Of a stretch of DNA of 64,000 bases, positions 2,455 through 10,846 are shown one piece after another (the stretch's first letter is position 1; each line of letters begins with the position of its first letter). The notes beneath the pieces are model-generated. The model was not told where the DNA came from. It ran no database searches and worked only from the letters and a program-made list of their open reading frames with translations. The translations under genes were made by a program, and so were the position numbers. Location: positions 5,713 to 69,712 of the forward strand of contig JACRAK010000025.1 of NCBI GenBank assembly GCA_016234725.1, written 5' to 3'. The stretch is from Candidatus Azambacteria bacterium. GTDB lineage: Bacteria > Patescibacteriota > Minisyncoccia > GWC2-36-17 > WO2-46-25.

Positions 2455-2524
2455 ACAGGATCTAGAAGAAAATGAATCGCATGATCTTAGTTTCTAGTTT
2501 CTAAATTCTAGTTTCTACCCACAT

Positions 2525-3112
2525 ATGGCAATCGCACTCGAAAAGATCCAAAAATTACGCGAGCAGACGATGGCGTCTCTCAACGATGTGAAAAAAGCGC
2601 TTGATGAAGCAGAGGGCGATGAAGAAAAAGCCCTTTTTATTTTAAAGAAAAAAGGAAAGATCATCGCGGATAAAAAATCCTCGCGCGAAACGAAGGCGGG
2701 CATCATCACCTCCTACATGCATGGCGAGGGGAGGATCGGCGTACTTTTGGAGCTGAAATGCGAAACGGATTTTGTCGCAAGGAACGAAGAGTTCAAGGAA
2801 CTTGCGCATGACATCGCGCTCCATATCGCGGCGATGGCTCCTCAGTATGCGAAGCCCGAAGACGTGCCTGAGCATGCGCTTGCCGTAGAAATGAAAATGT
2901 TCGAGGAGCAGACAAGCGAACTCAAAAAACCCGCGGAGATCGTGAAGCAGATCATCGAAGGCAAGGTGAAGAAATATTATGACGAGGTGTGTTTGTTGAA
3001 TCAGCCATTCGTGAAAAATGACACTATGACCGTGAAAGACCGCATCGCGGAAAGCGTCTCGAAACTCGGGGAAAACATTGAAGTGGGTAGGTTCGCGCGG
3101 TTCGCGATGTAA
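2525..3112 (+). CDS. tsf: Elongation factor Ts (short form)
   Basis: N-terminal UBA-like motif (LREQTMASLNDVKKALDEAEGDEEKALFILKKKG) and EF-Ts dimerisation core, 195 aa. Confidence 0.88.
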   Translation: MAIALEKIQKLREQTMASLNDVKKALDEAEGDEEKALFILKKKGKIIADKKSSRETKAGIITSYMHGEGRIGVLLELKCETDFVARNEEFKELAHDIALHIAAMAPQYAKPEDVPEHALAVEMKMFEEQTSELKKPAEIVKQIIEGKVKKYYDEVCLLNQPFVKNDTMTVKDRIAESVSKLGENIEVGRFARFAM

Positions 3113-3131
3113 TATTGAAGCGGGTTCCACT

Positions 3132-3533
3132 ATGGTCTCTCTTTCTCTCGTTTTTGCAATTCTCTTTTTCGCTTCACTCGGTGGCGCGATATTCATGGCG
3201 GTGAGAAAGGCGCCTGTGCTTGCGCGGATACCCGCAGAGTCGCTTCCCAACCAAGAAACATTCTTTGCTTGGGCGGCGCGAATAGCGAGGATACTGTTCA
3301 CCGCGCTGCATCCTCACCAGATAAAGATGTATGCGGTCGCGCAGACCGCGAAAACATTGCACATGTTTCGTGTTCTTTCTTTTAAAATACATCGGTTCGT
3401 TGATGCCATGGCGCACACCGCAAAGAAGAAATCGCAGGAAATGGAACGAGAGCATCGATCGGCGGCTCCTTCCGATGCGCAGGAGGGAGAAGCGGGGCGG
3501 GACGCAGGGAACGATGCGCATCGGAAAGAATAA
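3132..3533 (+). CDS. Hypothetical small membrane protein (single predicted TM helix)
   Basis: ORF with a hydrophobic N-terminus (VSLSLVFAILFFASLGGAIFMAV) and no recognisable domain. The start is uncertain; the longer ORF from 3078 overlaps the end of tsf. Confidence 0.25.
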   Translation: MVSLSLVFAILFFASLGGAIFMAVRKAPVLARIPAESLPNQETFFAWAARIARILFTALHPHQIKMYAVAQTAKTLHMFRVLSFKIHRFVDAMAHTAKKKSQEMEREHRSAAPSDAQEGEAGRDAGNDAHRKE

Positions 3534-3550
3534 GGTGTTGTTGCGCGTGC

Positions 3551-3836
3551 GCCACCTTAGCTCAGTTCACCCTCCTAAATTTTGTGGAGCAAAACTTTGG
3601 AGGGTAAAGAGCAACTGTTTCTTGCCCGCCCATCTTTTTATGCCGATGTAGCTCAGTGGTAGAGCAACTGTTTTGTAAACAGTAGGTCGTCGGTCCGATC
3701 CCGACCATCGGCTCCCGTTTTGTCTGAAGCGTAGCGAAGTTACAAAACGCAGTCCAGCGAAGTCGTGGCTCACGGAGCATAAAAGATAGGCGGGTGAATA
3801 AACAGTAGGTCTTCGGTTCAAATCCGAAAGGTGGCT
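3551..3836 (+). pseudogene. Split/interrupted tRNA-like gene: 5' piece 3551-3566, D-stem and anticodon 5' strand 3609-3618, 3' piece 3802-3836, enclosing an intact tRNA-Thr
   Basis: Acceptor halves GCCACCT (3551-3557) and AGGTGGC (3829-3835) are perfectly complementary. The 3' piece has an anticodon stem, V-loop and canonical T-arm (TTCGG-TTCAAAT-CCGAA). The D-loop carries a 35-nt hairpin (3570-3604), and the anticodon-loop position is filled by about 185 nt that include tRNA-Thr. Confidence 0.4.
3642..3713 (+). tRNA. tRNA-Thr (anticodon UGU)
   Basis: Cloverleaf read by hand: acceptor GCCGATG/CATCGGC, D-arm GCTC-AGTGGTA-GAGC, anticodon stem ACTGT/ACAGT with loop TTTGTAA, and T-arm GTCGG-TCCGATC-CCGAC. 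The T-loop has an unusual C at position 55. Flanked by 18-bp inverted repeats at 3624-3641 and 3777-3794. Confidence 0.8.
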
Positions 3837-3853
3837 CAGTTACATAACAACAT

Positions 3854-3938
3854 GCGCAGATGGCGGAGCGGCCAATCGCACTTGACTGTAAATCAAGCGC
3901 CCGAACGGGCTACGCAGGTTCAAATCCTGCTCTGCGCA
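3854..3938 (+). tRNA. tRNA-Tyr (anticodon GUA), long variable arm
   Basis: Acceptor GCGCAGA/TCTGCGC, anticodon stem CTTGA/TCAAG with loop CTGTAAA, and a long variable arm CGCCCGAACGGGCTAC, giving 85 nt. Confidence 0.85.
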
Positions 3939-4103
3939 CAACAGCAAAAAGGAGGCAAGGATTTTTCTTTGGCGTCTTTTTGCTGTCGATTCAGGAGGAT
4001 TTGAACCGCGGGCCGCAACCCACAAAGAGTGGGTGTAGGTTTCGAGCACAGCAGTGCGAGAGGCAAATCCTGCTCTGCGCACCAATTTTATTAAGAGAAT
4101 CAT

Positions 4104-4670
4104 ATGTTGACATACAACGAATTACGGAGAGGAACTTTTCTTTTATTGGACGACGAACCGTGGGTCGTCGAAGAATTTGAATTTTTGCGCATGCAGCAGC
4201 GCAAGCCCGTTGCAAAAGTGAAGATAAAAAGCCTTATCACCGGCAAAGTGCAGGAACGGACGTTTCACCAGAACGAATCGGTGGAAGAAGCGGTGCTTGA
4301 GAAAATGCCCGCGCGATTCTTGTATGAAAGCCGCGGCGAGTTCTGGTTTGATGAGCCGGGGAATCCGAAGAACCGCTTCTCGTTCACCCGTGAAGAGATC
4401 GCGGATATCGCGGAGTTCTTAAAACCGAACCTCGAAGTGATCGCGCTGAAGTTCGATGAGAAGATCATCAACATCGAGCCGCCGGTGAAGGTGGATTACA
4501 AGGTGGTGATGGCGCCGCCAGCTATTCGCGGCAACACCGCGCAGGGAGGCAATAAGACGGTGACGCTTGAGAACGGGCTTGAGATACAGGTGCCGCTGTT
4601 CGTGAACGAAGGCGACATCATCCGCGTGAACACCCAGCTGAAAACATACGTTGAAAGGGTGGGAAAATAA
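4104..4670 (+). CDS. efp: Elongation factor P
   Basis: 188 aa with an EF-P N-terminal KOW-like region and C-terminal OB domains (..GKVQERTFHQ.., ..IEPPVKVDYKV.., ..GDIIRVNTQ..). Confidence 0.88.
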   Translation: MLTYNELRRGTFLLLDDEPWVVEEFEFLRMQQRKPVAKVKIKSLITGKVQERTFHQNESVEEAVLEKMPARFLYESRGEFWFDEPGNPKNRFSFTREEIADIAEFLKPNLEVIALKFDEKIINIEPPVKVDYKVVMAPPAIRGNTAQGGNKTVTLENGLEIQVPLFVNEGDIIRVNTQLKTYVERVGK

Positions 4671-4778
4671 TATTGACGAAATCGGTATACATGCTACTAT
4701 CGCTGCAAAAGCGATAGTTTGCTTTTATACGGCATTATATCGATATCACGTACGTTAACAATACAAGGAGGTGGAGAG

Positions 4779-5087
4779 ATGAGAACCACATGCAGGAAGC
4801 ATGAAGCAGGGATCCATCAGTGCATTGAGAAGATCATAAACACATGTAAGCAGAAAATGATCCAGGTGCCGTTTAAGGATAAGCCGGCGCATATTATGCT
4901 GAACTGCAAGCAGGTAGACGACATTCTTGCGTATGCGGCCGAGGAAGCATATCACCCGAAGGAGGAATGTGCGCTGAAGTGGGAACCCGTGATGTGTTGC
5001 CATGAGCCCGATCTCATGTGTGAAAACTGCGGCAGATCTTTTAGGGATAGAGTGATAGAGAGGGCGCGAGGGAGTGGCGTGCTGTAG
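4779..5087 (+). CDS. Small Cys/His-rich protein, paralog 1 of a tandem triplet (unknown family)
   Basis: GGAGG ribosome-binding site 8 nt upstream of the ATG at 4779. Shares the motifs HxxIxECIEKIIN, LxCKQVDDIL and a C-terminal CxxC with the ORFs at 5463 and 5795. Confidence 0.5.
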   Translation: MRTTCRKHEAGIHQCIEKIINTCKQKMIQVPFKDKPAHIMLNCKQVDDILAYAAEEAYHPKEECALKWEPVMCCHEPDLMCENCGRSFRDRVIERARGSGVL

Positions 5088-5117
5088 CGATCTTTGATAC
5101 ACTGAAAGGAAAAAGAT

Positions 5118-5423
5118 ATGAGAACAATGGAACAACTGAACTTTCTTGATGAACCCGGAGAGAATAATGAGGACGAAGGAAATGAACCCGAGGTAGAGGA
5201 GGATGAGATGAAGGAAGAGAATGATGAGAATGATCTTGCAGATAAGGAGTTAGAAAAGAGAGTAAAGAAAACGGAGGCAACAACGATAGAAGGCGTAAAA
5301 AAAGATTTAGGGTATAATCCGGCGATTCCAACAGGACAAAAGAAGCCGCTGGGTCCGGGAAGAGCAGCAGCGCTTGAGCTTTTGAAGAAGTTCAGTGAGG
5401 AAAAGGAAAAAGGAGGCAAGTAG
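5118..5423 (+). CDS. Highly acidic (D/E-rich) small protein
   Basis: 101 aa with a long acidic run (EDEGNEPEVEEDEMKEENDENDLAD). It lies between paralogs 1 and 2 with tight spacing. Confidence 0.4.
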   Translation: MRTMEQLNFLDEPGENNEDEGNEPEVEEDEMKEENDENDLADKELEKRVKKTEATTIEGVKKDLGYNPAIPTGQKKPLGPGRAAALELLKKFSEEKEKGGK

Positions 5424-5462
5424 TTCTATTCTCGGCATTTTAAAAACGAGGAGGTGAGAAAG

Positions 5463-5771
5463 ATGGGGTGTAGTTCAGACGCACACACGAAAGAGATTCA
5501 CGAATGTGTTGAGAAAATAATCAATGCATATCGCCAGGACATGGATACTCATGCGCCAAAAATACAACGCTCACCGCACATTGCGCTTGTGTGCAGGGAC
5601 GTCAATCGTATTCTTGGTGACGTGATCGATCGAGCGGCACATCATAAAGGCCACACTGTGGTATGGCACTCATCGATTTTTGGCCAGGGACACGCGCTTA
5701 CGTGCGGAACATGCGCAGCTTCTTTCAACAATATGGTGATCGAGATGGCGCGAAAATTAAAAAAACTGTAA
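5463..5771 (+). CDS. Small Cys/His-rich protein, paralog 2
   Basis: GGAGG ribosome-binding site and conserved motifs (KEIHECVEKIINAYRQ, LVCRDVNRILGDVIDRAAHH, CGTC). Confidence 0.5.
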   Translation: MGCSSDAHTKEIHECVEKIINAYRQDMDTHAPKIQRSPHIALVCRDVNRILGDVIDRAAHHKGHTVVWHSSIFGQGHALTCGTCAASFNNMVIEMARKLKKL

Positions 5772-5794
5772 TTATTTTTGAAAGGAAGGTGCAC

Positions 5795-6133
5795 ATGAGA
5801 AAGTGCATGAAGCATGATCAGCAGATGCATCGGCATATCGAGCGCATCATGGAGCAGTATAAGCGCAGCGTAAATGGCAAGTCTGTGACCCTGACTTTGG
5901 TAGTTACGTTAACATGTGAGCAGGTGGACGACATCCTGGAAGACGTTGTTGCGAGAGCGACCGGACACGAACTTGGTCATCACGCAAACCCCCGTTTATG
6001 GGTGCATGTCGACGGAACTCCGCATCTTGCGTGCAGCTATTGCGGATCTCTTCTTACTCTCGAGGCTGAGGATGCATACCGTGAGATCGTCATGGGATAT
6101 CCTCCGCATGAAAAACAAGGCCCCCGGTCATAA
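5795..6133 (+). CDS. Small Cys/His-rich protein, paralog 3
   Basis: Ribosome-binding site GGAAGGTG; conserved motifs (HRHIERIMEQYKR, LTCEQVDDILEDVVARATGH, CSYCG). Confidence 0.5.
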   Translation: MRKCMKHDQQMHRHIERIMEQYKRSVNGKSVTLTLVVTLTCEQVDDILEDVVARATGHELGHHANPRLWVHVDGTPHLACSYCGSLLTLEAEDAYREIVMGYPPHEKQGPRS

Positions 6134-6191
6134 CGACGGGGGCTGTAACTTTTCTATGAATATAGTAGTCTTATAGTATATACTACAGCAT

Positions 6192-9100
6192 ATGAATTTA
6201 TATACAGCAGCCAGATTCTCTTCATTCGTTTCCCTTGCCGTTTTTATCGCGGTTGGTTTATGTGTATCACCGGTATTTTCCCATACCGTTTCTGCCGCTC
6301 CTTATTTTTACTTTGATGCTGAGAGCGGCACTGCGGGCGAGAGCCTTACTAACCCGCCTTTTTGTCAGACCGACTGCGGTGAAAGCTACCAAACAGGAAC
6401 GGTCGAATCTGCCGGAGGCGCTCCGCAAGGAACCAACTATTTTCAGTGGCACATCGCCAACCTTCAGCATTCTGTTTACAACATCGTTCATAACCCAAGC
6501 ACATTTCCTTTTAATCCGCCATTAGGGAGCACCATGTACTTGGCTTATTATTTTAATTATTCACGGGTCAATGGCGTAGATGTCTGGCATGAAGTTGACG
6601 ATAGCGCCGACAAGGGGATCGAACTTACCGGATCGGGCATACGATGGATAACGAGTCCCGGTCATTGGGGTTCGCTTGCAAACAATCAAGACCATCACTA
6701 TACCATCTGGATGGGTAATCCGACCTATCATCTCAATCCGCAATTTGAAGGCAATCCGTATTGGACGGTGGTTCCTCCCAATCAGAGCGGGTATAGCATC
6801 GCCGCCCCGCCCCAACTGGAATATGAACGATGGTATTCGGCCGTTATGGCAGTTAAGCTGGCTACAGATAATACCGGATCGGTTACCTTGTATCTTGATG
6901 GAGTAAAAATACTGGAATGGAACAACATCATCACTGCCGCAAACACCGCGCCAACCATAGAACACATAACAATGGGCGGGACCATTGCCCAGCCCGCCTA
7001 TGACACGCCGGAGCATTACAGAAAATACGACGCGTTAATGCTTACTGATAATTGGCAGGATATCGTTAACGGCGGATATCTTGGAACTTCATCAATCGCC
7101 GATACCCAAGCGCCGACCGTACCCAGCGGCCTTATTGCCATCGCCGCTTCTTCCGCGCAGATCGATCTTTCTTGGACGACTTCTACCGATACCATAGGAG
7201 TCACCGGATACACAATCTACCGAGACGGAACTCAAATTGCCACTTCCCCAACCAACTCATATGCAAACACCGGCCTTTCTGCTTCCACTCTCTACACATA
7301 TACCGTTTCCGCATATGATGCCGCCGGAAACAATTCCGCTCGATCCGCGATCGTATCAGCGACGACGCAGGCGGTACCGGTTGTCGCAACACCTTTCGGC
7401 ACTCCCGTCCTCAATTTCTCCGATCTCACTTCCGGCCCTAAGACCGGTTGGGAGGGATCGACTACTCAAGGATCGGCCGTCTCTATTTGGGGCAGCGGCT
7501 TTGGCTCATCAAGAGGTTCTAGTTATGTCACGGTCAATGGAGCCCAGCTTACTGCCGCCAGCGATTACGCAGAGTGGGGGGTGACAACGAACAACGCCAG
7601 GGGGCTAGAGAGAATTACATTTTGGTTAAATAATTTTTCCATCGACGGACCCGGCGGTATTACCGTTACCGTAAATGGCGAGACATCAAACACGCTCCCA
7701 TTTACCGTGCGGGCAGGAAATATCTATTTTATTGATGGCACAAACGGAAGCGATTCTTTTAATGGGGAAAAGGCGGTGAGCGGGGCAAGCGGAGGGCCAT
7801 GGAAACATTTCTATATGGCATCTCCCACGTACAATAGCGCTTTTCATGCCGGTGATATCGTTTATGTCAGGGGGGGTATTTATAATGAGATACACCCCAA
7901 CTCCGGGTCTGACCCTCTTATTATGTTTAATAACGTTCAGGGCACATCGGATAGTCCTTACATGATAGCCGCATTCCCTGGTGAATTTCCTCAGCTTGGC
8001 GATCAAGGGCATACCAAGGGAATATACAATCGCCAACAGGACGGCGGCGGTATACCATCACATGGCATAACTTTTTCAAAATTTCTATGGTCTCCCGGGT
8101 GCGAGGCGATCAACATTTGGGGAAATTATTGGCGCATTGTCGGCAACACGTTAAAAGATAATATCTGCGCAAGCCAGTCCGCCGCCCTTTCATCGACTAA
8201 TTCTGCCTATACCGAGGTATTGGGGAATGTTTTTGATCACAATGGAAACCCGGAATCCCAACTCCAGCATCATCTTTATTTCACTTCAGTATGTTTGGAT
8301 TACGGATATCAAAATTGTGCCGAATCCCATCATAATACGCTTGCATGGAATGAAACGATGAATGGACCAGGCTCGGCGGGGAACGGATCAGAATCCTGGG
8401 CCATTAAAACATGGATAGCAGGCACCGCGCTGACCTCCCACGATTTTTATATCCATGATAATTATTGGCACGATGAGCCGGGAGAAGCGATTTGGCTGTA
8501 TGCAAAAGTCAAAGATATTTACATTTACAACAATATCTTTGAGAAGGTAAATTTTTACAACAAGAAAGGAGGGATACGTTCTCAGGCTTTGGCCGGAAAT
8601 GCGCCCGCAGCAAACGGAAATTTATATTTATACAACAATACGTTTTACGACTGGAGCAACGGTGTTGATCAGGGGGCAATTGTCGCTTTTGGCGTGAATG
8701 ACCATTGGATCACAAAAAACAACATTTTTTATTCATCAAACCCGGCAGGATGGGTTTTGAGCGCGACGAATGGAGGCAGCGTTATATCCGATCACGACCT
8801 ATTCTATAATCACGGACAAATCAAATATAGCGGTGGAAATGTTACCACTACCAATGCGATTGTATCTGTAAACCCGCAATTTAGAAATAGTGCGACGCAC
8901 GATTTTTATTTAAACACCTCAAGTCCGGCAAAAGATGTCGGTGTCATGATAGATATTTTTAATAAAGACTATGACGGTATCTCCCGCCCTCAAGGCTCAG
9001 CATATGACATCGGCGCATACGAATATTATGAAGGCTCTGTTTCTGCCCCAGCTCCCATTGTCACTCCTCCGGCAAGCACACCAATAACCACACCTACCAC

Positions 9101-9638
9101 ACCGCCAACATCTTCCAGCGGCTCATCTTTTACCACCCCATCAGGGAATTCATCTTCGCAGACAACACCCTCTCCGGCTGCGAGCAACTCATCTCCTGCA
9201 ACTCCCTCAGGCATGAGCACATCCCCGGCAACTCACCCTTTAACCCAATCAACCGCATCACCATCTATCACAGAGGGTTCTCTCATTCGCGGCCCCGACG
9301 GCATTAAGGTGTATATTATCAACGCGCACGGGTACAAGCGCCATATCTTTAACCCCGCGATCTTCAATATGTACGGTCACTTCAAATGGAATGAAATTAA
9401 AAGCGTAGACCAACAAACACTCGATGCATTTAAAACATCCGATCTTTATCGGGCAGATGGGGATACTAAGGTCTTTTCCCTCTCTGAGATCAACGAAGCC
9501 CAAGGGCTTGCCCAAAAGCGCTGGTTTAACACCTCAGCCACAAAATTCCAACAACTCGGCTATACCTTTAATCAGGTCTTTATCATTAACCCGAGAGAGC
9601 GGGATTATTACCAGGAAGGCGCACCTATTACCAATTGA
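6192..9638 (+). CDS. Large secreted multidomain protein: signal/TM, ConA/LamG-like jelly-roll, fibronectin type III, right-handed beta-helix, Pro/Thr/Ser linker, C-terminal domain
   Basis: N-terminal hydrophobic signal. FN3 signature (APTVPSGL...LSWTTSTD...GYTIYRDG...YTYTVSAYDAAGN). Beta-helix repeats (NYWRIVGNTLKDN, NNIFYSS, ..YDIGAYEY). A PT-rich linker APAPIVTPPASTPITTPTTPPTSSSGSS. Confidence 0.7.
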   Translation: MNLYTAARFSSFVSLAVFIAVGLCVSPVFSHTVSAAPYFYFDAESGTAGESLTNPPFCQTDCGESYQTGTVESAGGAPQGTNYFQWHIANLQHSVYNIVHNPSTFPFNPPLGSTMYLAYYFNYSRVNGVDVWHEVDDSADKGIELTGSGIRWITSPGHWGSLANNQDHHYTIWMGNPTYHLNPQFEGNPYWTVVPPNQSGYSIAAPPQLEYERWYSAVMAVKLATDNTGSVTLYLDGVKILEWNNIITAANTAPTIEHITMGGTIAQPAYDTPEHYRKYDALMLTDNWQDIVNGGYLGTSSIADTQAPTVPSGLIAIAASSAQIDLSWTTSTDTIGVTGYTIYRDGTQIATSPTNSYANTGLSASTLYTYTVSAYDAAGNNSARSAIVSATTQAVPVVATPFGTPVLNFSDLTSGPKTGWEGSTTQGSAVSIWGSGFGSSRGSSYVTVNGAQLTAASDYAEWGVTTNNARGLERITFWLNNFSIDGPGGITVTVNGETSNTLPFTVRAGNIYFIDGTNGSDSFNGEKAVSGASGGPWKHFYMASPTYNSAFHAGDIVYVRGGIYNEIHPNSGSDPLIMFNNVQGTSDSPYMIAAFPGEFPQLGDQGHTKGIYNRQQDGGGIPSHGITFSKFLWSPGCEAINIWGNYWRIVGNTLKDNICASQSAALSSTNSAYTEVLGNVFDHNGNPESQLQHHLYFTSVCLDYGYQNCAESHHNTLAWNETMNGPGSAGNGSESWAIKTWIAGTALTSHDFYIHDNYWHDEPGEAIWLYAKVKDIYIYNNIFEKVNFYNKKGGIRSQALAGNAPAANGNLYLYNNTFYDWSNGVDQGAIVAFGVNDHWITKNNIFYSSNPAGWVLSATNGGSVISDHDLFYNHGQIKYSGGNVTTTNAIVSVNPQFRNSATHDFYLNTSSPAKDVGVMIDIFNKDYDGISRPQGSAYDIGAYEYYEGSVSAPAPIVTPPASTPITTPTTPPTSSSGSSFTTPSGNSSSQTTPSPAASNSSPATPSGMSTSPATHPLTQSTASPSITEGSLIRGPDGIKVYIINAHGYKRHIFNPAIFNMYGHFKWNEIKSVDQQTLDAFKTSDLYRADGDTKVFSLSEINEAQGLAQKRWFNTSATKFQQLGYTFNQVFIINPRERDYYQEGAPITN

Positions 9639-9771
9639 ACCGGTGCGGGCGAGCGCGTGTAGGAGGTGCGTGATAGAATGTTTTCTTATGTGCTGGTAGA
9701 CTAATATTCTCCACAGTAGTCGCTTTGCTTTATGAGAAAAATAGCATATAATCGCATAATAAGCTATTTTT

Positions 9772-10365
9772 ATGGATCTTTCACGTTCTTTACTTGAGAA
9801 GTTTTACATAAAAAAGAACAGATCTGTTTCCGATATTGCGAAGGCACTTCGCTGTTCTGAGCATAAGATAAACTATTGGCTCGCGAAATTCACTATTCCA
9901 AAACGATCGATCAGTGAAGCGATCTATGTAAAAAACCACCCTCGCGGTGATCCTTTCAAAGTAAAAAAACAATTAACGAGCCGTGAGGTAAAACTTCTTG
10001 GGCTTGGGCTTGGGCTTTATTGGGGCGAAGGGAACAAGAAGAATAAGGTGTCGCTGCGATTAGGGAATACGGATCCGAGGCTGATAAAGATGTTCATGGA
10101 TTTTCTAGAAGAGATTTGCGGAGTGGCGCGAAACGCTATTACATTCAATCTCCTTATTTTTAATGATATCAGCGTATCTGCGGCAAAGCGATTTTGGGTT
10201 GCGGCATTGGGTATTCGCCCGGAACAGATACGAGGCAAAGTTATTGTGCTGAAGTCGGGGCGCATCGGCACATATAGACAGAAATCAAAATATGGAGTAT
10301 TAATATTACAGTATCACAATCGAAAACTCCGTGATATACTATGCGGGATGATTGAAAAATTATAA
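9772..10365 (+). CDS. HTH protein with a degenerate LAGLIDADG-like motif (possible free-standing homing-endonuclease relic)
   Basis: N-terminal HTH (SVSDIAKALRCSEHKINYWLAKF) and the motif KLLGLGLGLYWGEGNKKN resembling LAGLIDADG. The catalytic acidic positions are not clearly conserved. A TATAAT -10 box sits at about 9748. Confidence 0.3.
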   Translation: MDLSRSLLEKFYIKKNRSVSDIAKALRCSEHKINYWLAKFTIPKRSISEAIYVKNHPRGDPFKVKKQLTSREVKLLGLGLGLYWGEGNKKNKVSLRLGNTDPRLIKMFMDFLEEICGVARNAITFNLLIFNDISVSAAKRFWVAALGIRPEQIRGKVIVLKSGRIGTYRQKSKYGVLILQYHNRKLRDILCGMIEKL

Positions 10366-10458
10366 GCGATGTCATAAGAGGTGAATCGCTTGAAATTCCG
10401 TCGCTCGCCCGTCGCGAAAATTCATTTTCGTGCGGACTCGCTAGGAATTATAAAATAT

Positions 10459-10743
10459 GCCGTTGTAGCTCAGTTGGTAGAGCAACTCCATGGTAGAGCG
10501 TTTTTTCTGCCCGTAGCGAGGGAAACTTCGCTGATGAATCCGAATAACGGTTAAAAACTTAGCACAAAGTTAAGACCGTGGCGTTATCCTTTAGTGTTTT
10601 CTGGAGAATAAAGCCCGAACGACTGACAAGGAGGGCTGAATCAAAGTATGCCCAAGATACAGTCTAGCCCTCTCTATACGTGCATTAAAAAAGAGAGGTG
10701 TAAGCGAAGGAGTAGGTCGCCGGTTCAACTCCGGCCAACGGCT
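10459..10743 (+). tRNA. tRNA (probably Thr-GGU, anticodon assignment tentative) interrupted in the anticodon loop by a group-I-like intron of about 215 nt
   Basis: 5' exon GCCGTTG-TA-GCTC-AGTTGGTA-GAGC-A-ACTCC; 3' exon GGAGT-AGGTC-GCCGG-TTCAACT-CCGGC-CAACGGC, giving a perfect cloverleaf. The intron carries group I core-like elements: GCGAGGGAAACTTCGC, GAATCCGAAT, a P7-like GACTG...AAGATACAGTCTAG, and ends in G before the 3' exon. Confidence 0.6.
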
Positions 10744-10846
10744 CAGGTATGATTAATAACCCATAACCTACAACTAATAACCGCCGCATAACTTATAATT
10801 TTTGTTATCAGTTATGTGTTAAAAGCTGGTAGTTTGTTAAAATAAT

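Follow-up and report, generated by a model that had tools for sequence, protein, structure and literature searches.

Four settings are classically recognized for the group I introns that bacterial tRNA genes carry, namely tRNA-Leu(UAA), tRNA-fMet, tRNA-Arg(CCU) and tRNA-Ile(CAU), and all of them hold introns of the IC3 type. Examples are the introns in cyanobacterial and plastid tRNA-Leu(UAA), in tRNA-fMet, in Agrobacterium tRNA-Arg(CCU) and in Azoarcus tRNA-Ile(CAU). These introns measure roughly 200–250 nt, mostly lack an ORF, sit in the anticodon loop and have a GNRA-capped P2, and self-splicing is expected of them. A 2025 preprint by Nakagawa et al. is said to treat tRNA group I introns in Patescibacteria.

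Williams (2020, bioRxiv 10.1101/2020.01.27.920355) extended the bacterial tRNA settings to 21; our comparison covers the seed alignment of that work. One of its classes, Thr.5Ug, is represented by the seed Rba53.Thr.5Ug, which lies after the GGU of tRNA-Thr. Introns in tRNAs of CPR bacteria are also mentioned in PMC8172020, and Lui et al. (2021) noted that CPR tRNAs are hard to detect because of group I introns.

We found a tRNA-Thr(GGU) gene that is very probably interrupted between U36 and A37 by a group I intron of 212 nt that has no ORF. The gene belongs to an uncultured groundwater bacterium (CPR/Patescibacteria; Parcubacteria, Candidatus Azambacteria) and lies in a stretch of 64,000 nt, which we call the window. 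The features of the locus are listed in Table 1. Neither this kind of intron nor the tRNA-Thr site is new. The initial annotation, which considered an intron at this site in this lineage notable, overstated the novelty, since Williams (2020) already has a Thr.5Ug class there and PMC8172020 mentions CPR tRNA introns.

Table 1. Features of the split tRNA-Thr(GGU) gene, its predicted intron and the upstream ORF (positions in the window)
Feature	Positions	Strand	Description
197-aa ORF	9772-10365	+	stop 93 nt before the tRNA; HTH and C-terminal alpha/beta domain
tRNA-Thr(GGU) 5' exon	10459-10494	+	acceptor, D arm, anticodon stem 5' strand ACUCC, loop A32 U33 G34 G35 U36
Predicted group I intron	10495-10706	+	212 nt, no ORF; first nucleotide A, last nucleotide G10706
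P1	10492-10511	+	exon GGU and intron AG(AG) (10492-10496/98) with guide (UU)CUGCC (10505/07-10511)
P2 hairpin	10512-10535	+	GAAA tetraloop 10522-10525; changes on both sides in 9/9 pairs
P3 5' strand UCC	10539-10541	+	pairs with GGA 10630-10632; pseudoknot with P7
P4 and enclosed P5	10547-10579	+	P4 ACGGUU 10547-52 / GACCGU 10574-79; P5 10557-60 / 10567-70
P6 (GGC.../...GCC)	10580-10615	+	extension ~10583-10612; 5/5 pairs covary (GG/CC to CC/GG and AG/CU)
P7 5' strand A(C)GACUG	10619-10625	+	bulged C10620; preceded by J6/7 CGA; partner CAGUCU 10660-10665
P3 3' strand GGA	10630-10632	+	pairs with UCC 10539-10541
P8 hairpin GGGC/GCCC	10633-10653	+	4/4 pairs covary; 64, 66, 50 and 14 double changes
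J8/7 AAGAUA and P7 3' strand CAGUCU	10654-10665	+	classical S element; RF00028 consensus GAAGAUAUAGUC
P9 hairpin CCUCUC/GAGAGG	10669-10698	+	6/6 pairs covary
tRNA-Thr(GGU) 3' exon	10707-10743	+	A37 A38, anticodon stem 3' strand GGAGU, variable loop, T arm, acceptor

The setting of the window intron is that of the Thr.5Ug seed as given in the Williams alignment. Both interrupt a tRNA-Thr with GGU after the third anticodon nucleotide, which is loop position 5 (36/37), and both have U at position −1 and a terminal G. They also share a P1 formed by exon GGU and intron GCC, and a P2 capped by GAAA. The cores, by contrast, differ. That of the seed is of the IC3 type, with GUAGAGACCA at J6/7-P7, AAGGGAUGGUCC at J8/7-P7' and P4 strands UUCGGGGAAA/CAAUCCCGA, whereas the window has CGAACGACUGACA, AAGAUACAGUCU and AACGGUUAAA/AAGACCGU at these places. 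When the consensus of the intron family described below is compared with the Williams seed alignment, the IC3 core (GUAGAGACUA; AAGGGAUAGUCC; UUCGGGGAAA/AAUCCCGA; a P3 of 6–7 bp) is absent. As judged from its sequence, the core of the window intron is not of the IC3 type.

The classical IC3 tRNA introns nevertheless resemble it in length, in mostly lacking an ORF, in lying in the anticodon loop, in the GNRA-capped P2 and in the self-splicing that is expected, and the Arg and Ile introns share its 36/37 position. It differs from them in its core sequence, in its P3 of 3 bp instead of 6–7 bp, in the phylum and in the tRNA. Its nearest relatives outside tRNA-Thr, by core sequence, are introns in phage protein genes (L081 and L079/L080, from IMG/VR), which have an identical J6/7-P7-J7/3 and J8/7-P7' core. 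These phage introns differ in residing in protein genes and in their P1 guide sequences. At least two group I cores use the tRNA-Thr site in CPR bacteria: the IC3-type core of the Williams seed and the phage-intron-like core of the window family.

The boundaries of the insert follow from uninterrupted tRNA-Thr(GGT) alleles in two relatives (L001 4416-4490 and L002 2316-2390). Both alleles align colinearly with the exon pair and thereby place the insertion exactly, between T36 and A37. The 5' exon ends in ACTCC-ATGGT and the 3' exon starts with AA-GGAGT; its discriminator is T at 10743 (U in the RNA), and CCA is not encoded. The insert is preceded by U, ends in G and is placed after anticodon nucleotide 36. 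It was initially put at about 215 nt; the insert itself stands, and its length is exactly 212 nt. The joined exons form a perfect cloverleaf whose anticodon, GGU, sits in the loop AUGGUAA (−31.3 kcal/mol, z = −3.9; none of 200 shuffles matches this energy). This confirms the cloverleaf and, with the junction taken from the intronless alleles, the threonine identity that had been proposed tentatively.

The first of these relatives (L001) is the closest one, with 89% identity in lysyl-tRNA synthetase, the gene for which lies just downstream of the split tRNA. The assignment of the window to Candidatus Azambacteria comes from the relatives of this synthetase. Another member of Azambacteria (L009) carries a homologous insert at the same point, with ~70% identity and compensatory changes in several hairpins. 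The split gene keeps its syntenic position ahead of rpmG and tRNA-Trp. Neither default ARAGORN nor the Rfam tRNA model called the tRNA-Thr(GGU) gene. When introns were allowed, a check that the initial annotation had suggested, ARAGORN reported tRNA-Thr(ggt) and placed its intron, of length 212, at position 37, in agreement with the alleles.

To find further copies, we combined the pair of blocks with the highest conservation into a pattern, AACGACTGACA followed by AAGATACAGTC with a gap of 14–44 between them. Its matches comprise 3 viral contigs and at least 120 stretches of metagenome sequence, and nearly all of the latter are tRNAs split in the anticodon loop. A strict parser, which needed intact anticodon and acceptor stems, TGGT before the intron and G at its end, accepted 109 loci including the window. 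The in silico spliced product is tRNA-Thr(GGT) in 108 of these 109, so the GCG anticodon that the initial annotation had kept as an alternative is a splice-point ambiguity of ARAGORN. The labels Arg(GCG), Pro(GGG) and His(GUG) that ARAGORN gave to relatives were rejected on the same grounds of splice-point ambiguity. Introns of the family are 169–254 nt long. Given the copy in L009 and at least 108 metagenome contigs with a homologous insert at the same site, the occurrence of the insert is far beyond chance, and the family is spread through the tRNA-Thr(GGU) genes of CPR/Patescibacteria. Since P7 and J8/7 are fixed in the search pattern, these loci are a biased sample, and the family is in reality more diverse than they show.

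We aligned 101 distinct copies, each with 7 + 6 exon nucleotides attached (alignment A2). The helices in this alignment follow the order P1-P2-P3-P4-P5-P6-P7-P3'-P8-P7'-P9, including the P3/P7 pseudoknot. RNAalifold, unaided, predicted P1, P2, P4, P5, P6, P7, P8 and P9, with double-sided changes in 32 of 46 pairs. With P3 added, compensatory double changes occur in 35 of 49 pairs in the 101 copies, and 96.2% of cells pair, as against 78.4% in column shuffles and 32–47% in controls in which the partners were slid by 1–3 columns. None of 500 shuffles reaches any of the observed pairing measures. The P1-P9 fold, which the initial annotation had made a point to be checked, can thus be formed across the family.

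All pairs in P2, P3, P5, P6, P8 and P9 covary. P4 and P7 are uninformative for covariation because neither ever varies; the invariance of P7 is partly imposed by the search pattern, which left P4 free. In P1, U10494.G10509 is a wobble at the 5' splice site. This U.G and its two flanking G-C pairs are invariant in all 101 copies, and both inner pairs covary (GU/AU/GC/UA). All across the family, L2 has the form of a GNRA tetraloop. P3 is just 3 bp long, with 99.3% of cells paired and C-G to U-A double changes in 3, 1 and 3 sequences. In P5, 4/4 pairs covary, and J4/5 and J5/4 are A-rich. A terminal G precedes every 3' exon. Since the parser required this G, the support for G10706 comes from the junction seen in the intronless alleles together with the invariant G in the alignment.

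The core sequences resemble the RF00028 consensus in an R-like J6/7-P7 with a bulge and an S-like J8/7-P7' (AAGAUAUAGUC). A U-to-C change in P7' compensates an A-to-G change in the 5' strand of P7 (A-U to G-C). The geometry of P7, which is one pair, a bulge and five pairs, is that of the P7 annotation in the Williams seed alignment. Part of the core had been assigned differently at the outset. The hairpin GCGAGG-GAAA-CUUCGC, taken for a P element, is P2 with its GNRA tetraloop, and GAATCCGAAT, taken for Q, is the 5' strand of P3 (UCC) plus J3/4. The original calls for P7 (GACUG/CAGUC), J8/7 (AAGAUA) and the terminal G were right. Two other pairings, AUAACG/CGUUAU as P4 and UCCUU (10588-) with AAGGA as P3, were dropped after comparison with L009 and the 101-sequence alignment.

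The P6 extension of the window intron comprises ~30 nt, compared with ~10 nt in L009, and is among the longest in the alignment. P6 inserts of comparable length occur in L105, L181 and L185. Elsewhere in the family, there are inserts in P1 (L177) and in P5 (L105, L141 and L181).

Taken together, the intronless alleles, the 101 homologs, the covariation in every variable helix, and the invariant U.G and terminal G support the assignment of the insert to group I, as the initial annotation had proposed. By analogy with established group I chemistry and from the predicted fold, we infer that the tRNA matures by two-step, guanosine-initiated transesterification. The precursor would be transcribed, and the intron would fold into its P1-P9 core with the P3/P7 pseudoknot and the GNRA-capped P2. 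An external guanosine bound in P7 would attack the phosphate after U36, which P1 (exon GGU with intron GCC) would present as a U.G wobble. The terminal G10706 would then take the place of the external guanosine in the binding site, and ligation of the exons would yield the anticodon loop AUGGUAA and a mature tRNA-Thr(GGU).

Searches with existing models did not find this intron. RF00028 gave no match in the window at its gathering threshold, nor at E <= 10 on a 441-nt slice (10380-10820). The initial annotation had named the absence of such a match as a finding against a group I intron, and formally this is what was obtained. We do not regard it as decisive, because the model has no bacterial sequence among its seeds, according to Williams (2020, bioRxiv 10.1101/2020.01.27.920355), because none of 20 other family members was matched by it, and because a model of the new family matches introns that RF00028 itself certifies. 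We take the failure as a sign that RF00028 is insensitive and not as a refutation. The window was likewise unmatched by a sequence-only nhmmer profile drawn from half (13 of 26) of the Williams seed introns, which included the Rba53.Thr.5Ug seed, and by a 6-sequence subset of non-IC3 introns.

The covariance model of the family (R1) was built from A2. It scores the window intron at 167.8 bits, the window copy being in the training set, and copies outside the training set at 168–186 bits. No second copy of the intron was found with R1 in the 64,000-nt window. Phage introns match over the full model length, with 92 bits for L081 and 34 bits for L079/L080. R1 also matches, over its full length, two introns in L079, at 2953-3137 (26.1 bits, E 4e-7) and 2739-2917 (25 bits, E 8e-7), which RF00028 scores at 50.1 and 58.4 bits, respectively. 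These matches link the family to certified group I introns.

The phage contigs have features of their own. The region 2515-5990 (−) of L079, an IMG/VR contig of which L080 carries the same element, has the same J6/7-P7 and J8/7-P7' core. At least 6 group I introns occur there in ~3.5 kb; four are called by RF00028, and two more by R1 only. The intron in L081 (5919-6125, +) interrupts a protein gene whose exon translation resembles a transglycosylase by eye.

Two readings would deny that the locus holds a working tRNA gene with a group I intron, and both appear very improbable. One is that the insertion is dead, that tRNA-Thr(GGU) is a pseudogene and that other tRNAs decode in its place. Standard tRNA finders do miss the gene, and there is a tRNA-Thr(UGU) at 3642. 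However, 108 independent loci retain exons with perfect tRNA features, the anticodon stem shows compensatory changes, covariation maintains the intron helices, and the syntenic place before rpmG and tRNA-Trp is retained. An equally remote reading takes the group I likeness to be superficial and assigns the insert to another class (for instance, a protein-cut intron like the archaeal bulge-helix-bulge introns) or to a new ribozyme. What favors it is that neither RF00028 nor the sequence profile built from known group I introns of bacterial tRNAs matches. Yet the insert has the full group I helix order with the P3/P7 pseudoknot, keeps the U.G wobble and the terminal G, and shows both the J8/7 consensus and a bulge in P7; R1 cross-matches introns certified by RF00028, and the junctions have no bulge-helix-bulge motif.

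Just upstream of the split tRNA is a gene for a 197-aa protein, identical to NCBI protein HY839_03650 from a metagenome-assembled Azambacteria genome. Neither the protein nor its C-terminal domain has a Pfam family. Its N-terminal 50 residues match the HTH module of two PHROG families annotated "HNH endonuclease" (40 of 40 homologs, best E 1e-9), and Pfam HTH_23 matches 22 of the 40 homologs. In the AlphaFold model, which is confident (pLDDT 88.5), the N-terminal domain is helical and the C-terminal domain is of the alpha/beta type. An invariant motif, G77-x-G79-x-G81-x-Y83-W84-G85-E86-G87, lies at the end of helix 70-82, which is the first of the C-terminal domain. In the model, this helix ending in YWGEG recalls the LAGLIDADG helix. 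Pfam LAGLIDADG_3 matches 2 of the 40 homologs weakly (E 0.018), and matches in BFVD include LAGLIDADG and other DNA endonucleases at a non-significant E of 0.007–0.06. A Foldseek search of the model against the PDB found no significant match, and hhalign against an approximate I-CreI sequence gave a probability of 0.2%. The sequence and model comparisons are thus only faintly suggestive of a LAGLIDADG fold.

The family of this protein has more than 1,400 members. We searched with tblastn for the ORF at the 90 intron loci with enough upstream sequence. At 34 of the 90, a full-length homolog immediately precedes the split tRNA and shares its strand; the gap is −7 to 134 nt in all of these save one (384 nt), with a median of ~35 nt. 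Another 11 loci have only a remnant, such as L009, which keeps the last 96 nt, and tblastn found no upstream homolog at the remaining 45. The gene is absent from the intronless relatives L001 and L002. Homologs upstream of tRNA-Thr(GGU) occur in L202-L212 and in ~45 of L082-L201.

We also looked in reverse, from the ORF to its surroundings. In each of the nine distinct contexts of ORF homologs that we sampled, tRNA-Thr(GGU) starts −22 to +36 nt from the stop codon. Six of these tRNAs have the intron and three do not, so the ORF is tied to tRNA-Thr(GGU), and often, though not always, to the intron. In the three intronless cases (L205 2577-2651, L209 1598-1672 and L211 1562-1636), the ORF stops inside the 5' end of the tRNA. 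The anticodon stems of two of them are atypical (CCGCU/AGCGG in L205 and UCUGC/GCAGG in L211); the anticodon arm of the third, L209, is identical to that of intron-bearing alleles.

Free-standing endonucleases next to tRNA genes have a precedent in SegB of phage T4, which belongs to the T4 tRNA gene region. Collaborative homing, in which an ORF-less intron is paired with a free-standing endonuclease, is represented by F-CphI and the psbA intron of cyanophage S-PM2 and by mobE and I-TevIII in T4 (PMC3984707). The locus in the window resembles these systems in its ORF-less intron and in the separate candidate endonuclease gene, which lies within a few tens of nucleotides of the split tRNA gene, and full, decayed and absent copies of that gene resemble the life cycle of a homing endonuclease. 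It differs in that the tRNA is intronless in three of the nine ORF contexts and in that the host is a cellular CPR genome and not a phage.

By this analogy, the most economical reading is that a candidate free-standing homing endonuclease may target the tRNA gene and drag the nearby intron along. We put forward only tentatively that the intron spreads by DNA-level homing with the help of the neighboring 197-aa HTH protein; the evidence leaves this somewhat short of an even chance. Slightly more speculative is the proposal that the 197-aa family could be a new free-standing homing endonuclease on the tRNA-Thr(GGU) of CPR bacteria, forming a two-part mobile unit with the intron 36 nt inside the gene. 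The three intronless contexts out of nine, one with an identical anticodon arm, argue against strict collaborative homing. If the reading were true, collaborative homing would occur in the genome of a cell and not of a phage, and at a tRNA gene, and it would explain how a non-IC3, phage-related intron lineage spread through Patescibacteria. In any event, the recurrent adjacency of the intron and an endonuclease-like gene offers a testable case for the mobility of ORF-less tRNA introns.

The same adjacency could also arise if the group I fold splices poorly by itself and the 197-aa protein acts as a maturase, as some LAGLIDADG proteins do, the ORF being kept beside the tRNA for co-expression. 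The ORF is indeed on the same strand and ends between 22 nt inside and 134 nt before the tRNA, across the 34 intron loci and all nine homolog contexts; the family is strongly conserved (50–70% identity), and a P3 of 3 bp might need stabilization. Most intron copies nonetheless function without an ORF in cis, since 45 of 90 intron loci have none upstream and 11 only remnants. Moreover, three of the nine ORF contexts have an intronless tRNA, and the N-terminal domain is a DNA-binding HTH that is shared with phage endonucleases. A maturase role therefore seems unlikely, and judging from these sequence data it is a weaker alternative to the free-standing homing endonuclease.

Genomes of this lineage appear to lack a tRNA reading ACC and ACU, because default ARAGORN, the Rfam tRNA model and RF00028 all miss the split tRNA-Thr(GGU) gene. 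More than 100 genes of this sort can be recovered with R1 or with the simple pattern of the core.

Elsewhere in the window, a tRNA at 54669-54740 (−) is called by Rfam (41 bits) and is uncalled by ARAGORN. By eye, the anticodon stem CCCCG/CGGGG encloses 8 nt (ACUAUAAU), one more than the usual 7, and the acceptor strands do not pair perfectly. This may be a tRNA of unusual form (perhaps with a UAU anticodon) or a tRNA-like element.

Upstream of the split gene, the distance from tRNA-Tyr to tRNA-Thr(GGU) is ~6.5 kb (3940-10458), compared with ~210 nt in L009. By sequence comparison, this locus is rearranged relative to its relatives. In addition to the 197-aa ORF, the region contains efp (4104-4670), three tandem small Cys/His-rich paralogous ORFs (4719-5087, 5454-5771 and 5663-6133) and a gene for a 1148-aa protein (6192-9638) that has an FN3 domain and weak, below-threshold lyase-like matches.
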